Of a stretch of DNA of 8,583 nt, positions 2,003 to 6,990 are shown in pieces. Position numbers and translations under genes: made by a program. The DNA comes from a virus. Taxonomy: Duplodnaviria > Heunggongvirae > Uroviricota > Caudoviricetes. The notes beneath the pieces are model-generated. The model was not told the DNA's origin. It searched no databases and was given only the letters and a program-made list of their open reading frames with translations. Each line of letters opens with the position of its first letter. Position 1 is the stretch's first letter. Location of the stretch: the IMG/VR virus record IMGVR_UViG_2541047170_000019. One strand, written 5' to 3'.

Positions 2003-2421
2003 TTCTCAATCTCTCGATGGCGCAGTGCAGCAGATGCCAGTTGTTCAAGCTAGCACGCAAATTGTAAACCAGAATGCCAGGAAAAAACAAAACCCGCCGA
2101 AGCTGGTTGTGTGCGGTTGCGTTGAAGTCTCCTAGCCAAAGAGTAGCGGTGACCACTCCCCGCCGATAATCTTAGTTGTTTAATTTCGTAAGCTAACTAG
2201 GCTAAAAGCTCTCTGTTGTCTGCCTGTTGTACAATTAACAAAATGAACAACGAACTAGATATACCAACGCCAGAATGGTGCAACAAATCCCAAACAACAC
2301 AGCAATGCAACAATAACATATGTTATTTTCCTCTCACGGGATTCAGTCCTGAATTCTCATAAAGCTAATCTTTTTTTAAAAACATACTGTTAGATCACAT
2401 GCACTTTCTTTCTTAACATCG

Positions 2422-2449
2422 TTGACTTCGCATGCGAAGCGTTTAAAAT
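2422..2449 (+). promoter_or_regulatory. candidate sigma70-type promoter for the GHKL ATPase operon
   Basis: TTGACT (2422-2427), 16-bp spacer, TAAAAT (2444-2449); A/T-rich upstream region. Predicted start site near 2456, about 45 nt upstream of the ATG at 2502. The spacer contains the perfect palindrome TTCGCATGCGAA (2427-2438). Confidence 0.4.
2427..2438. promoter_or_regulatory. perfect 12-bp palindrome TTCGCATGCGAA inside the promoter spacer; candidate operator or methylation-sensitive site
   Basis: Self-complementary 12-mer read directly from the sequence, overlapping the -35 hexamer and spacer of the candidate promoter. Confidence 0.3.
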
Positions 2450-2501
2450 CAACAATTTGCACTTAAGGTATTTATTTTCCCAAACACATAGAGAGTAAAT
2501 T

Positions 2502-3893
2502 ATGACTGAGAACACGACTCCAACAGCAGACTTTAGTCCTAGTAAAAGATTTTTTGTAAGTATGCTAACTCGAGATATCGACTTAAACGATGCCATACTT
2601 GATCTGCTTGATAACTGCGTCGATGGGGCTTTACGTACAATAAAAGACACAAAAAAAACTTCAAAACCATATGAAGGATTTTATGCGAAACTTACGATTA
2701 ATAAAGATGTCTTTATTATAGAAGACAATTGCGGAGGTATCCCTAAAAGCTTCCGAGAATATGCTTTTAAAATGGGACGACCCCATCAAAAAGAAGAAGA
2801 AAATGAAGGCACCGTTGGCGTCTATGGTATTGGTATGAAAAGAGCCATTTTTAAAATGGGTAGAGATTGCTCAATACAATCGAATAATCCCGATGGCGCA
2901 TTCACTGTAGATATAACACCTGATTGGATCGATGGTGATGGTTGGAAAATACCGATGCACGAGAGTGACTATGATAACAAAAATCCAACAGGCACAACTA
3001 TAGAGATAAAAAAACTCCATTCTAATGTGGCACAAAAATTTAATGAGAGCACATATCTTACTGATCTCTTTTTACAGATAAAACACTCATTGTCATTTAT
3101 TATTCAAAAAGGATTTAAAATAGAATTAAATGGAGTTGTTGTTGAACATAATCCGATTAACATCATAACTGATCATTCTAAAATAGAACCATACATATAT
3201 AAAGCTAAAATAGACGATGTTGATATCGATTTAGTTGTTGGCTTCTATAAAAATTTAGAAGATGACAATGATGATGTTTTAGAAAAAAGGAGTTCTGATG
3301 ATGCTGGATGGACTGTCATTTGCAATGACCGCGTTGTTCTATATTGTGATAAGACACATCTCACAGGTTGGGGCTTTGCTAATGTACCAAGGTTTCATAC
3401 CCAATTTATAGCAATTTCTGGGGTTGTTCGCTTTACCAGTAAAAACCCAGAAAAATTACCAATAACAACAACGAAACGAGGTGTCGATCTTAGTTCTACA
3501 TTGTACAATGATGTACGAAATAAAATGATTGAAGGGATGATGCATTTTATTCGATTCACCAATCAGTGGAAAGGTGAGCATCTTGAAGAAGGGAAAAAAT
3601 TACTTAAGTCAGCTCAGTCACATGAAGCTCAATCTTTATTTGAAATTACCCCACAATCAACTCCAGAAGATAAAAAAAATAACTGGTCCAACCCTAATAG
3701 AAACAAAAATGAGTGGCGATATACACCTAAGCTGCCTACCCCAGTAAAAAAAAGCTCTACTGTACGAATAATCTTCACCAGAGAGAAAGAAGATGTTAAA
3801 ATTTTATCTAAATATTTCTTTGGACATGAAGATGCTAGCGCTTCTGATGTGGGGATGCAATGCTTTGATACGGTGATTGAAGAGGTGAAGTGA
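2502..3893 (+). CDS. GHKL-superfamily (Bergerat-fold) ATPase, MutL/MORC/Hsp90-like N-terminal domain with a C-terminal region of about 290 aa of unknown function
   Basis: 463-aa ORF; GAGAG Shine-Dalgarno 6 nt upstream of the ATG. All four Bergerat motifs appear in canonical order: N-box DLLDNCVDGA (aa 34-43, nt 2601-2630), G1 box IEDNCGGIP (aa 73-81), G2 box GTVGVYGIGMKRAIF (aa 103-117) and G3 box PTGTTIEI (aa 162-169). The N-box has the N...D spacing of MutL/Hsp90/GyrB/MORC-type ATPases rather than histidine kinases. Confidence 0.8.
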   Translation: MTENTTPTADFSPSKRFFVSMLTRDIDLNDAILDLLDNCVDGALRTIKDTKKTSKPYEGFYAKLTINKDVFIIEDNCGGIPKSFREYAFKMGRPHQKEEENEGTVGVYGIGMKRAIFKMGRDCSIQSNNPDGAFTVDITPDWIDGDGWKIPMHESDYDNKNPTGTTIEIKKLHSNVAQKFNESTYLTDLFLQIKHSLSFIIQKGFKIELNGVVVEHNPINIITDHSKIEPYIYKAKIDDVDIDLVVGFYKNLEDDNDDVLEKRSSDDAGWTVICNDRVVLYCDKTHLTGWGFANVPRFHTQFIAISGVVRFTSKNPEKLPITTTKRGVDLSSTLYNDVRNKMIEGMMHFIRFTNQWKGEHLEEGKKLLKSAQSHEAQSLFEITPQSTPEDKKNNWSNPNRNKNEWRYTPKLPTPVKKSSTVRIIFTREKEDVKILSKYFFGHEDASASDVGMQCFDTVIEEVK

Positions 3894-4882
3894 TGTCTGG
3901 ACAATACATTCCCTATCACTTAAGGCATAATAAGTCTATTGATAGAGAGATTTTTCTCGAAAGCCTAAACCTCTTAAGCAAAAGACTAAATATTCAAGAA
4001 TATACATATATAGGTTTTGGTGGTCCGATGCTTGAAGATTTTAGAATCATGCATAATCGTATCGCTCTTTCTGATATGATTTCTCTCGAAGAACAAGAGT
4101 CTACTCACATCAGACAAAAATATAATTTGCCTTATAATTGTATTGATTGTAAGCTAATATCAGCTCATGACTTTATTCTTGATTATAGTTTTTCTAAACC
4201 ATCAATAACATGGTTAGACTATGCCTCCCCGAAAAAAATACAAACGGATCTAGATGATATACACTTACTAAGTACTAAAGTAAGCTCTTTTGATATTTTG
4301 AAGGTCACCTTCCCCATAAATCCTAGTTCTTATTACCAACGTAGAGTTGGAGAAAGTTTAGATATTTTTAAAGAAGCTTTTATTAATTCATTAAAATCAT
4401 TGCTTGGGAAAAAGTATCTTGATTTTAATCTTCAGATATCAAATGCAGATCTTTCAGATCGTAAGATTAAAGCTCTTTTAATACGAATTATTACAAACGC
4501 TTTTAGATCAGCAATAGAACGTGGTCTTTCAGGACGTAAGGATAAGATTCAGTATTACCCATTATCCTTAAATCAATATAATGATGGCAGTCATACCATG
4601 TTGACAATATCAGGTTTTTTCTCCTCAGAACAAGAATATATAGAGTTATCTAAGGCATGCGACCTTTCTAACTGGCAATTTTATTCAACAAATTGGGAAG
4701 ACGTGCAAGAAATAGCAATACCAACACTAACAATTAAAGAAAAGATAAATTTAGATAGTAAACTGCCTGATAAAGAAGCATATCAGGCAGCCGCTGAAGA
4801 GTTCTCTTTAAACGAAAATGAACGGGATAACTATTATAAATACTATAGGTTATACCCTAACTTCCAAAGAATTATGGTTTAA
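3893..4882 (+). CDS. hypothetical protein, translationally coupled partner of the GHKL ATPase; function unknown
   Basis: ATG 3893-3895 overlaps the ATPase TGA stop (3891-3893) as TGATG, with AGAGGTGA 5-8 nt upstream (the track's start at 3890 is a GTG). 330-aa (from ATG 3893; 331 codons from the track GTG 3890) AT-rich ORF. No canonical nuclease, helicase or Toprim motif recognised. The N-terminal YIGFGGP...RIALSD...NLPY is faintly reminiscent of a Rossmann-type SAM-binding motif followed by a degenerate (D/N)PPY (speculative). Confidence 0.75.
   Translation: MSGQYIPYHLRHNKSIDREIFLESLNLLSKRLNIQEYTYIGFGGPMLEDFRIMHNRIALSDMISLEEQESTHIRQKYNLPYNCIDCKLISAHDFILDYSFSKPSITWLDYASPKKIQTDLDDIHLLSTKVSSFDILKVTFPINPSSYYQRRVGESLDIFKEAFINSLKSLLGKKYLDFNLQISNADLSDRKIKALLIRIITNAFRSAIERGLSGRKDKIQYYPLSLNQYNDGSHTMLTISGFFSSEQEYIELSKACDLSNWQFYSTNWEDVQEIAIPTLTIKEKINLDSKLPDKEAYQAAAEEFSLNENERDNYYKYYRLYPNFQRIMV
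4745..4790 (-). terminator. candidate intrinsic terminator for the methyltransferase gene, embedded in the 3' coding region of the convergent partner gene
   Basis: Perfect 10-bp inverted repeat CTGCCTGATA (4763-4772) / TATCAGGCAG (4781-4790) with an 8-nt loop. On the minus strand it is followed by the U-rich run TTTACTATCTAAATTTAT. It lies about 60 nt downstream of the methyltransferase stop at 4850. The plus-strand side is not T-rich. Confidence 0.4.
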
Positions 4883-6001
4883 ATATTCGGGCTGTACTCT
4901 TTTATTTAATAAATTGTACAGCCCCTTTAATATATATTCAGCAACTATTGGTGACACGCTATTTCCTATTTGTCTGAAACTATGCCATTTAGTTACATGA
5001 AAGCGAAACCAATCAGGGAAGCCTTGTAATCTAGCAGCTTCTCTTGGTGTAATCACTCTTGGATGATAAGGGTGGATCGGCCTGACGGCTTGAAAGCTTC
5101 CTTTATCTCTAGCGGTTCCCGCCCTTAAAGTCGGGCAAAAACCATTTGGATCTAATCTTGTAGATCTTGAAATTTTATCAGTTTCCCCAAAAGATAAGGA
5201 AGCATAACGCTCTTGGACGATTTTGCTATGTAATGTTCCGGTACATCCAGATATGATATTATTTTTTAACTTAGCGATCGATTCTGTATCACCAACATTC
5301 CGAGGGATCTGCCCCCATAATTTTTCATAAAATCCCCCTTTTCGATCTTTTTTAATTGTTCGCCAACTCTCAGAGTCTGATTGCCAATTGGCATCGATAA
5401 TATCTGGTAATCCATACAAAGCATCTTTTACAGTAACCGGATCAATCATTTTAGGCATAAATACTTCATCTGAAATATCAAGCTTCAATGATTTTTTTAC
5501 ACCGATAAAAAAATATCTAGTTCGAATAGTTGGAGCACCATAATCAGATGCTTTTACCTTGATGGGATCAAGAATATCATAATCACCGCTAACCAAATTA
5601 AATGCTTTATTTCTAATGCCAGAATATTTCTCTTGCATAATACCTGGAACATTTTCTGCCAAAAAGAATAATGGCTGTAATTCTGATACTAAACGGTAGA
5701 AATGCATGTAAAGCTGATTCCTGCTATCATCAGGATTCCCCTTGCCTATTGAACTAAATCCTTGGCACGGAGGACCGCCAATAATACCATCTATGGGCAT
5801 ATCGTTTTTAAAAAAACCCTTAATTATTTCTGCATTTAGTAAAGAAACATCTTCTTGGACGTGCAAACTTCTTGGAAAATTAATTGCGTGAGTATTAATA
5901 GCATGTTGATCAATTTCAACTGCCATTTTAACATCAAATCCAGCACGTGCAGCACCAAGACTTAGACCTCCAACGCCAGAAAACAAATCTATTACATTCA
6001 T
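4850..6001 (-). CDS. DNA (cytosine-5)-methyltransferase
   Basis: 383 aa with canonical C5-methyltransferase motifs in order: motif I DLFSGVGGLSLG (aa 5-16), motif IV GGPPCQGFS with catalytic Cys79, motif VI FLAENVPG, motif VIII RTRYFFIG, motif X IGNSVSPIVAEYI. Target-recognition region between VIII and X is about 190 aa. Specificity cannot be read from the sequence. Confidence 0.9.
   Translation of the reverse strand: MNVIDLFSGVGGLSLGAARAGFDVKMAVEIDQHAINTHAINFPRSLHVQEDVSLLNAEIIKGFFKNDMPIDGIIGGPPCQGFSSIGKGNPDDSRNQLYMHFYRLVSELQPLFFLAENVPGIMQEKYSGIRNKAFNLVSGDYDILDPIKVKASDYGAPTIRTRYFFIGVKKSLKLDISDEVFMPKMIDPVTVKDALYGLPDIIDANWQSDSESWRTIKKDRKGGFYEKLWGQIPRNVGDTESIAKLKNNIISGCTGTLHSKIVQERYASLSFGETDKISRSTRLDPNGFCPTLRAGTARDKGSFQAVRPIHPYHPRVITPREAARLQGFPDWFRFHVTKWHSFRQIGNSVSPIVAEYILKGLYNLLNKRVQPEYLNHNSLEVRV
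4889..4924 (+). terminator. stem-loop downstream of the partner gene stop; candidate terminator for the ATPase operon, lying inside the methyltransferase C-terminal codons
   Basis: 9-bp inverted repeat GGGCTGTAC (4889-4897) / GTACAGCCC (4916-4924) with an 18-nt A/T-rich loop, followed on the plus strand by CTTTAATATATATTC. It starts 7 nt after the partner gene stop (4880-4882). The large loop and interrupted T-tract make it a weak terminator call. Confidence 0.3.
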
Positions 6002-6033
6002 ATAGTTGCAACGTCTCTTATTAGTTTCTATGT

Positions 6034-6063
6034 ATTATAACACAACTGTTCTTGATGTTTTAA
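6034..6063 (-). promoter_or_regulatory. candidate extended -10 promoter for the methyltransferase gene
   Basis: Minus strand reads TGTTATAAT (perfect TATAAT at 6039..6034 with TGn extension) with a weak -35 TTAAAA at 6063..6058 (18-bp spacer). Predicted start site near 6027, about 25 nt upstream of the ATG at 6001. Confidence 0.4.
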
Positions 6064-6173
6064 CCCCATAAGATAACCTCATAAAGGCTATCCCTTGAAA
6101 ATACCGGATCGCATAAATTTAATCTTTCAAAACTACTTGTCTATTAATCGAGCAATTTAAGGTTGTTTTAGTC

Positions 6174-6189
6174 ATGTCGATACCGACAT
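6174..6189. repeat. 16-bp palindromic element ATGTCG-ATAC-CGACAT in the noncoding region upstream of the methyltransferase
   Basis: Perfect 6-bp inverted arms with a 4-bp spacer read directly from the sequence; a second inverted repeat CCCATTT(n12)AAATGGG lies at 6201-6226. Confidence 0.3.
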
Positions 6190-6263
6190 AGTTAACTAAA
6201 CCCATTTCATCGTCCAACAAATGGGGGTAATACACTTTGATTTATAGTCGGGTGGGTTTTTCT

Positions 6264-6352: not shown

Positions 6353-6436
6353 TTATCCCCAGCGGCAAATCGAATACACAACCAGCGCCACCGCCATCGC
6401 AATTCCTACCGTTGTGAATGCTTCAGGCCAGGTCAT
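6353..6436 (-). CDS. small hydrophobic peptide (27 aa, single predicted transmembrane helix), translationally coupled to the DUF551 gene
   Basis: Absent from the ORF track because of its size. ATG 6436..6434 overlaps the upstream TGA (6435..6433) as ATGA, with AGGAGGT (plus 6443-6449) 6 nt upstream. Translation: MTWPEAFTTVGIAMAVALVVYSICRWG, stop TAA 6355..6353. Confidence 0.45.
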   Translation of the reverse strand: MTWPEAFTTVGIAMAVALVVYSICRWG

Positions 6437-6990
6437 TGATTCACCTCCTGCGGCGGTTCTGGTAGCGACATCCAGTGGGTTGCTTGCCTAAGATCATTAC
6501 CCGGACTAACTGCTATACCTCCGCGCCGGAACGTGCCTCCGAGATAGCGTGCGGAATATATTAATGGCCCAGCCTCGCTATCGATATTCATCGAAATAAG
6601 CACGTTCTGGCTCTTTTCAGGCATTCGCTCAGTACAGCTTATCCAGCCATCCAGAGTTATCGGAGATCTGGTTGACGTTTCCGAGATTTCCCGAAAATTG
6701 TTGGTTGACGAATTCTTATTTTCCCGAAAGTTTCCGGCCTGAAGCATGGCGACGCGGCAGGCGTTCCAGCCATCAGCATATGTTTTAGTTACACCGTCGA
6801 GATGGCAGGTAAGCAAATCCATTTCATCAGGCACTACCATTGCTATCGGCTCTGCTTCCAGTGATGCCAGCGCGATACGAAACACATTAGCCAGCAGGCT
6901 GTCTGAAGACTTGTTATCGTGCGCCGAGTCGCTCAGGAAGCCTGTGATGTATGATTTAATCTCCGCGCGTTCTCTGGTAATAGTGCTCAT
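6433..6990 (-). CDS. DUF551-domain protein (lambdoid prophage early/nin region)
   Basis: 185-aa ORF. The C-terminal segment DGWISCTERMPE...VLISMN...THWMSLPEPP matches the W...LP...hWMPLPepP signature I recall for DUF551. AAGGA Shine-Dalgarno about 9 nt upstream of the ATG at 6990. Confidence 0.7.
   Translation of the reverse strand: MSTITRERAEIKSYITGFLSDSAHDNKSSDSLLANVFRIALASLEAEPIAMVVPDEMDLLTCHLDGVTKTYADGWNACRVAMLQAGNFRENKNSSTNNFREISETSTRSPITLDGWISCTERMPEKSQNVLISMNIDSEAGPLIYSARYLGGTFRRGGIAVSPGNDLRQATHWMSLPEPPQEVNQ

Follow-up and report, generated by a model that had tools for sequence, protein, structure and literature searches.

The DNA considered here is an 8,583-nt stretch (the window) of the Caudoviricetes record IMGVR_UViG_2541047170_000019, in which a three-gene cassette encodes an ATPase, a partner protein and a cytosine DNA methylase. 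The gene under study encodes the partner, a protein with the fold of S-adenosylmethionine (SAM)-dependent methyltransferases and the obligate, co-translated companion of the MORC-type ATPase. Together with the Dcm-type methylase, and often with Vsr, the two proteins form a mobile module of three to four genes, which is carried by prophages, filamentous phages and genomic islands. While the protein family of the partner, PF20553, is already known, the widespread module combining Dcm, a MORC-like ATPase and a methyltransferase-fold protein is uncharacterised. The genes lie as follows:

2502-3893, plus strand: MORC-type GHKL and S5 ATPase of 463 residues (Pfam HATPase_c_3, E=2.9e-9), upstream of the partner gene and translationally coupled to it
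3882-3887, plus strand: strong Shine-Dalgarno sequence GAGGTG, read from the sequence, within the 3′ end of the ATPase gene and 5 nt before the partner ATG
3893-4882, plus strand: partner gene, encoding a 329-residue PF20553 (Methyltransf_35) protein with a class I SAM-methyltransferase fold
4850-6001, minus strand: C5 cytosine DNA methyltransferase of the Dcm type (Pfam DNA_methylase, E=2.6e-61; PADLOC MTase_II, E=2e-98)

The partner open reading frame (ORF) runs from the ATG at 3893 to the TAA at 4880-4882 and comprises 330 codons, that is, 329 residues and the stop. The coordinates given in the initial annotation stand, with a protein length of 329 rather than 330 residues. An automated ORF listing begins one codon earlier, at GTG 3890, and so also arrives at 330 residues; ATG 3893 is favoured because the N-termini of the homologues (M-S-G-G-x-I-P-Y-H-L-R) and the RefSeq protein WP_000016656.1 both agree with it. 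Base 3893 is common to the ATPase stop codon TGA (3891-3893) and the partner start codon ATG (3893-3895), in keeping with the TGATG overlap described earlier. A chance ORF is excluded by its length of 990 nt in DNA of 31-34% guanine plus cytosine (GC), by the many homologues and by conservation in E. coli, where the gene is at least 99% identical in 173 of 5,426 complete genomes.

Tight coupling to the ATPase is general. Scanning one genome per GTDB species, with neighbouring genes analysed by phmmer, yielded 80 loci in Proteobacteria, Cyanobacteria, Verrucomicrobia, Acidobacteria, Latescibacterota, Dehalococcoidia, Poribacteria, a member of the Lachnospiraceae and a Methanoregulaceae archaeon. 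The ATPase gene is situated directly upstream of the partner gene in 78 of these loci, with stop and start codons usually overlapping (by 4 nt in 50 loci). Of the other two loci, one lies at a contig end and one has a disrupted gene; wherever a context was inspected individually and reached far enough upstream, the order ATPase–partner is kept. A Dcm-type methylase gene is found within 3.5 kb in 67 loci: upstream on the same strand in 37 (order Dcm, ATPase, partner), downstream and convergent in 22, where the 3′ ends often overlap, downstream on the same strand in 7 and divergent in 1. Vsr is present in 30 loci, so that the neighbourhood of methylase and Vsr known from paraMORC/MORC systems is conserved here as well. 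Clustering of the neighbouring ORFs of all 80 loci revealed no nuclease, helicase or other gene as a conserved third member; HNH-type genes are sporadic (6 and 5 loci). Pairwise identities of ATPase and partner are correlated (Spearman 0.58), more so than those of ATPase and Dcm (0.27) or of partner and Dcm (0.15), and some pairs of loci with partners 65-69% identical carry Dcm proteins that are only 34% identical. ATPase and partner therefore evolve like a single unit, to which the methylase is attached as an exchangeable component.

The cassette occupies variable insert and defence-island positions. In Ralstonia (L002) it resides on the chromosome beside gyrB, together with Vsr and a ScoMcrA-like gene; in Cronobacter (L006) the portal and gpA genes of a P2-like prophage flank it; in Pseudomonas it is found on an island beside integrases, again with Vsr; and in Yersinia (L009) it lies in a lambdoid prophage at the same DUF1367 junction as in the window. 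One metagenomic contig also bears the trio. At L015 (408-12599) the cassette sits between hsdM/hsdS and hsdR of a Type I restriction-modification (R-M) system. The 13.6-kb Pseudomonas filamentous phage PfAC20 (L096, 280-3711) carries the trio at one end of the genome in the order ATPase, partner, Dcm, a cassette that has been scored as an incomplete R-M system with a lone cytosine methylase (2025, PMC11878078). A second, short ORF annotated as 'DNA cytosine methyltransferase' occurs in PfAC20 at 5438-6082. Megablast of the cassette against sequenced phages gave no match, and tblastn matched only the Pf phage PfAC20 and two plasmids.

Several loci depart from the simple trio. In eight of the 80 (L027, L028, L031, L032, L036, L038, L044, L049) a second HATPase_c_3 GHKL ATPase adjoins Dcm; it is longer (about 560-590 residues), so that this variant has four genes and encodes two different GHKL ATPases. 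Rhodoferax L024 (4616-11709) has two divergent ATPase–partner pairs around a single Dcm gene. The pair occurs without Dcm within 6 kb in Nostocales and other cyanobacteria (L013/L014/L016, L018-L022) and also at L051 and L062; at least four of the cyanobacterial loci (L016, L018, L021, L022) share the same chromosomal position, adjoining a gene for an NDH-1/proton-antiporter subunit.

Phage-borne methylases often serve anti-restriction. The carriers of the cassette include temperate phages of the lambdoid (the window, L009), P2-like (L006) and Pf (L096) types, which raises the possibility that the partner is a second nucleic-acid methyltransferase, loaded or translocated by the ATPase, and that its purpose is modification rather than restriction: together with Dcm it would place a double mark on the DNA of the phage or island and so shield it from host restriction systems, the cassette being an anti-restriction insert. 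The absence of a nuclease agrees with this explanation, as does the strong purifying selection on all canonical catalytic motif positions of the partner described below. Many copies are, however, chromosomal or island-borne with no phage genes nearby (L002, L015 and the cyanobacterial loci), there is no known reason for a protective methylase to require an obligate MORC-type ATPase, and the frequent presence of Vsr suggests management of Dcm marks in resident DNA rather than protection of phage DNA. Anti-restriction is thus a possible but doubtful function of the cassette.

By sequence, the partner belongs to PF20553 (Methyltransf_35, 'putative O-methyltransferase'; E=2e-89, 300.4 bits against a cut-off of 27 bits). 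The match aligns residues 1-328 with positions 1-308 of the 309-position profile, and 36 of 36 aligned homologues match the same family. The protein also matches PHROG 19983 (phrog_19983, function unknown) with E=1.7e-154, and the RefSeq pipeline names it 'O-methyltransferase'; the earlier statement that it contains no known domain is thereby superseded. Of equal length and stand-alone architecture, it is a plain member of PF20553 without distinguishing features. Homologues collected by a profile search fell into 2,126 clusters at 50% identity, and for 1,749 of these the match had E<=1e-10. No NCBIfam family was matched by the partner, and a match to the NCBIfam MzaB model was negligible (E=0.037; 12 bits, cut-off 850). 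When the PDB was searched by sequence, neither the partner alone nor a 36-sequence profile returned a meaningful relative, an hhalign comparison with an approximate E. coli RsmD sequence was not significant, and the protein shows neither profile similarity to the RsmD-like family (Cons_hypoth95) nor its DPP(F/Y) motif. Domain fusions were absent among the top 150 representatives of the partner family and the top 120 ATPase homologues. No characterised PF20553 member was found in the literature.

Taken at face value, the Pfam and RefSeq names would have the partner methylate small molecules, as an O-methyltransferase in secondary or cell-envelope metabolism, and some small-molecule methyltransferases are indeed among its fold matches. 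Yet no Pfam O-methyltransferase family matches any of the 36 members, even at E<=10, and the partner groups with O-methyltransferases neither by sequence family nor by closest structural match. The genes regularly found beside its own encode a DNA-clamp-type ATPase, Dcm and Vsr, no conserved biosynthetic genes were seen nearby in the 80 loci, and the literature provided no experimental basis for the name. The 'O-' in the family name is therefore unsupported, and a metabolic role of this kind is extremely improbable.

An AlphaFold2 model of the partner, built on the 36 homologues, reached a predicted local distance difference test score (pLDDT) of 89.5 and a predicted template-modelling score of 0.88. 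It displays the topology of class I SAM-methyltransferases, with five parallel strands in an alternating β/α sandwich followed by an antiparallel β6/β7 hairpin. The modelled core consists of β1 (38-42), αA (45-57), β2 (61-66), αB (69-77), β3 (84-88), αC (91-97), β4 (104-109), αD (113-127) and β5 (135-141), after which come a helical insert (142-219), the hairpin of β6 (220-231) and β7 (234-244) and a helical C-terminal extension. All 50 Foldseek matches listed are SAM-methyltransferase-fold enzymes (E about 1e-6 to 1e-4, query-normalised TM-score <=0.45). The closest structural neighbours of the partner are RlmI-like enzymes, RsmD, Trm1, RlmO and a mitoribosomal assembly methyltransferase, at 7-14% identity and with about half of the chain aligned. 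The methyltransferase fold, as modelled, is firm, and no characterised family is close. Structure prediction followed by Foldseek was the check that the initial annotation had proposed for its tentative Rossmann/SAM-like assignment; PF20553 membership, model and structure matches all bear that assignment out, and the outcome named as fatal to it, a structure without a Rossmann fold, did not occur. The alternative of a novel fold, also raised there, is ruled out. With Dcm and the GHKL ATPase alongside, the module does hold two methyltransferase-like proteins and a GHKL ATPase, as had been suggested.

Compared with RsmD, RlmI (YccW) and Trm1, the nearest enzymes by fold, the partner shows no relationship at the sequence level. 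These enzymes carry DPP(F/Y) at motif IV whereas the partner has LDY, and the partner additionally possesses a 78-residue variable insert, an 85-residue C-terminal extension and an invariant N-terminal YHLRxNK tail. The genomic context of the partner is one of DNA methylation and not of ribosome biogenesis. The fact that the nearest structural neighbours methylate bases of rRNA or tRNA nevertheless allows for an abortive-infection effector, namely an RNA methyltransferase that is restrained by the GHKL ATPase, is freed upon infection and halts translation by methylating rRNA or tRNA; the occurrence of the pair without Dcm in several cyanobacteria would also fit. Such a role is unlikely, given that the structural likeness is generic (the low identity and half-length alignments noted above) and that the frequency of Dcm (67/80) and Vsr (30/80), together with the Dcm–ATPase–partner order of 37 loci, points to a logic of DNA methylation.

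Conservation was counted in 117 family members, comprising the 80 species-level loci and protein-database matches. Conserved in at least 95% of them are Y8, H9, L10, R11, N13, K14, R18, Y39, G43, G44, E48, D49, E66, R74, Q75, W107, D109, T139, Y229, D231, M236, P277, E283 and P322. Mapped on the window, the motifs of the partner are:

3914-3946, plus strand: N-terminal motif Y8-H9-L10-R11-x-N13-K14...R18, at least 95% conserved, in the motif X region
4013-4027, plus strand: motif I glycine loop G41-F42-G43-G44-P45, between β1 and αA and followed by the invariant E48-D49
4088-4090, plus strand: E66, at least 95% conserved, at the motif II position (C-terminal end of β2)
4124-4135, plus strand: NLPY (residues 78-81), in the αB–β3 loop and away from the active-site edge, with N78 and P80 the majority residues in 70-85%
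4211-4222, plus strand: W107-L108-D109-Y110, at the true motif IV position (end of β4), with W107 and D109 at least 95% and Y110 85-95% conserved
4316-4549, plus strand: variable helical insert, residues 142-219, with the highest alignment entropy (2.79 bits) and most insertions and deletions
4577-4585, plus strand: Y229-x-D231, at least 95% conserved, at the tip of the β6/β7 hairpin (motif VIII region)

Alignment entropy is lowest at canonical elements of the fold: the N-terminal helix, the glycine loop, the ends of β2 and β4, β5 (T139) and the β6/β7 hairpin. Purifying selection on an enzyme, or at the least on a pocket that binds cofactor and base, would be expected to leave such a pattern. 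The pairing typical of class I enzymes, a glycine-rich motif I after β1 and an acidic residue ending β2, is provided by G41-P45 and E66. In class I methyltransferases the motif II acid contacts the ribose hydroxyls of SAM, and from this knowledge of the fold E66 would be expected to contribute to binding of the SAM ribose. All three motifs pointed out previously were located within one residue of the places given for them (YIGFGGP at residues 39-45, RIALSD at 56-61, NLPY at 78-81), and they fared differently. The glycine loop is the true motif I. The acidic residue proposed, D61 of RIALSD, varies, E66 being the conserved motif II acid. NLPY, which had been likened to (D/N)PPY, was rejected as a catalytic motif on account of its limited conservation and of its position between αB and β3, at the sheet edge opposite the ligand-binding edge. 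At the end of β4, where amino-methyltransferases carry (D/N/S)-P-P-(Y/F/W), that motif is not present; the site holds W-L-D109-Y110, which is (D/N)PPY-like but without the prolines.

The alignment stretch of lowest entropy begins at residue 6, and residues 1-9 are modelled as disordered (pLDDT <50) although they are part of this most conserved stretch. This suggests that the N-terminal tail is either a docking peptide for the ATPase or a lid that becomes ordered over cofactor or substrate at the active site. The insert is, together with parts of the C-terminus, among the most variable regions and those richest in insertions and deletions, which makes it a candidate substrate- or target-recognition region. 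The invariant acids E48, D49, D109, D231 and E283 might alternatively be read, in a module without a recognisable nuclease, as those of a nuclease, a function the initial annotation had also considered for the partner. Given the methyltransferase fold, we regard this as very unlikely.

The ATPase gave a model with a pLDDT of 81.5 whose best structural matches are MORC3, SMCHD1 and MORC2, so that it is a GHKL and S5 ATPase of MORC-like structure. Its C-terminal portion of about 130 residues is mostly helical and matches nothing, and neither structure comparison nor Pfam disclosed a nuclease fold in the protein. Bergerat motif I (window 2601-2627, ATPase residues 34-42) reads DxxDNxxDG in 91 of 94 family members, placing an aspartate where MutL, MORC and GyrB carry the general-base glutamate. 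This exchange may make ATP hydrolysis slow and switch-like. Eukaryotic MORC2, MORC3 and SMCHD1, by contrast, keep the glutamate and possess CW, coiled-coil and hinge domains that are absent from the bacterial protein. E. coli MutL stimulates Vsr, as cited in a passage of PMC2292703, and Vsr accompanies the cassette in 30 of the 80 loci; conceivably, then, the module is a non-immune accessory to very-short-patch repair or Dcm housekeeping, in which a MutL-like ATPase stimulates Vsr and the partner aids strand or site discrimination. We deem this quite unlikely since most loci, including the window, have no Vsr, MORC proteins match the ATPase far better than MutL does, and the cassette is mobile and found in variable insert and defence-island positions.

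The explanation that we favour, at roughly even chances, is that the cassette is a mobile, restriction-modification-like module without a recognisable nuclease, in which the partner is the SAM-binding, base-handling subunit. In this scheme, Dcm would mark resident DNA and the complex of ATPase and partner would act on DNA that lacks the mark. The MORC-like ATPase dimer would provide ATP-driven clamping of DNA, and the SAM-loaded pocket of the partner, formed by the GxGG loop, E66, D109-Y110 and Y229/D231, would hold or modify a flipped base. What has been observed comprises the gene, its family and fold, the conserved positions, the linkage between the genes and the co-evolution of partner and ATPase; we infer SAM binding, a physical complex with the ATPase, a DNA substrate, a role in immunity and the mode of target neutralisation. 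The methylase expected of a Type II R-M system is in place: the translated Dcm of the window retains intact FSGVGG, GPPCQGFS and ENV motifs, and its PADLOC matches are of the MTase_II, DruM and DrmMII-like types.

A number of observations weigh against this explanation. Its weakest link is the absent nuclease: the restriction endonuclease that a Type II R-M system requires was not found in the ATPase, the partner or the conserved neighbours of the 80 loci. This gap does not rule out defence, because BREX and DISARM show the same gap. SAM binding by the partner is predicted solely from motif positions, and its catalytic competence is uncertain because motif IV is without its canonical prolines. 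No Dcm lies nearby in eight of the 80 loci, six of them cyanobacterial, despite adequate flanks, and any restriction-like activity of these loci would have to rely on an unlinked methylase; the cyanobacterial pairs without Dcm look vertically inherited rather than island-borne, which a strict R-M model leaves unexplained. The divergent Dcm proteins beside related ATPase–partner pairs are likewise hard to reconcile with a strict matching of sequence specificity. Finally, neither partner nor ATPase has a match at E<=1 among the families of PADLOC-DB v2, and no study of the PF20553 family, the protein pair or the triad was found in the literature.

A related but rather improbable reading is that of a nuclease-free epigenetic immune or silencing system. 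Dcm would again mark self, and the ATPase clamp, guided by the methyltransferase-fold subunit, would recognise unmarked DNA, trap, compact or hyper-modify it in an ATP-dependent manner and leave it uncut. If this were true, the module would be the bacterial counterpart, and possibly an ancestor, of eukaryotic silencing by MORC proteins and DNA methylation.

The restriction-modification-like module favoured here shares features with several described systems. On the basis of gene neighbourhoods, Iyer, Abhiman & Aravind (2008, PMC2292703) predicted that paraMORC ATPases cooperate with Dcm and Vsr in R-M systems. Common to those systems and the present module are a GHKL and S5 ATPase, the Dcm/Vsr neighbourhood and a sporadic, laterally mobile distribution. 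The described systems are associated with superfamily II helicases and with restriction-endonuclease-fold, HNH, TIR or other predicted nucleases, whereas the sole constant partner here is the methyltransferase-fold protein, and neither a superfamily II helicase nor a predicted endonuclease was found as a conserved neighbour in the 80 loci; no assignment of the ATPase to one of paraMORC1-5 was reached. The same three-part layout, consisting of a C5 methylase, a paraMORC-like HATPase_c_3 ATPase and an adjacent small Rossmann-like partner, is seen in modules of HEF_HK (PF19191), Response_reg_2 (PF19192) and Dcm (Bellieny-Rabelo et al. 2021, PMC8011034). There the partner is receiver-like, in contrast to the SAM-methyltransferase fold found here, and a Pfam search at E<=1 detected neither PF19191 nor PF19192 in the window proteins. 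When PADLOC-DB v2 was searched for known anti-phage systems (BREX, DISARM, Druantia, Mza, Hma and the PD- and PDC- candidates), only Dcm was matched. BREX and DISARM combine self-marking by a methylase with ATPase machinery and no recognised nuclease, DISARM having two methylases. The present module resembles them in these respects and differs from them in lacking PglZ, BrxC, BrxL, DrmA and DrmB and in comprising only three to four genes. WonAB and Shedu-type GHKL systems (PMC12137116) were rejected as relatives because of their different architecture, which includes a PD-(D/E)xK nuclease.

Prophages of pathogenic E. coli, Yersinia and Cronobacter carry the family, as do Pseudomonas Pf phages, and in these defence finders report an 'orphan' cytosine methylase only. 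If the ATPase–partner pair is the other half of the module, many orphan Dcm genes would become complete candidate systems. The module would then offer a compact and tractable methylation-based system without a nuclease, a problem still unresolved for BREX, and, in view of the likeness of its ATPase to MORC3, SMCHD1 and MORC2, a simple bacterial model for the coupling of MORC-type ATPases to DNA methylation.

In the window itself, the composition of the DNA and two promoter-like sites outline the cassette:

2051-6200, strand not applicable: low-GC cassette (31-39% GC), set in lambdoid prophage DNA of 45-55% GC
2422-2449, plus strand: promoter-like TTGACT, 16-nt spacer, TAAAAT (10/12 matches), about 50 nt upstream of the ATPase start
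6034-6063, minus strand: promoter-like TTAAAA, 18-nt spacer, TG-TATAAT (10/12 matches, extended -10), upstream of dcm

Sites of this kind are no commoner in the region than in shuffled sequence, and only their placement is suggestive. The cassette is flanked by minus-strand genes for DUF1133/Q-like (562-1236), YbcO (1113-1403) and DUF1367 (1403-2002) on one side and for DUF551 (6433-6990), DUF4014 and DUF1627 on the other, a set of genes that marks the surroundings as the early-right (nin/Q) part of a lambdoid prophage of E. coli. Similarity to other prophages of this species breaks off at about 2051, some 50 nt past the DUF1367 start, and at the same junction other prophages (L097, 5650-7600) have IS421 and hok/gef in place of the cassette. 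Low GC content, the break in homology and the presence of other cargo at the site together mark the cassette as an acquired insert in a variable slot. The longest ORF for DUF1133/Q-like overlaps that for YbcO by 124 nt, its Pfam match starts at residue 41 and the RefSeq gene in a related prophage is shorter (555 nt); its true start is probably internal.

Vsr is absent from the window cassette. The dcm gene is convergent with the partner gene, their 3′ ends overlapping by 33 nt (4850-4882); at other enterobacterial loci (L006, L029, L034, L037, L039, L041) this overlap is 40-50 nt. The arrangement may give rise to antisense or transcriptional interference between the two arms. The window Dcm is 60-64% identical to that of the enterobacterial cassettes L006, L009, L029, L034, L037 and L039, whereas the ATPase (41-44%) and the partner (31-34%) are far more diverged in the same comparison. 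Judged by these identities, the window cassette may be a recombinant that joined the Dcm of one lineage to the ATPase–partner pair of another.

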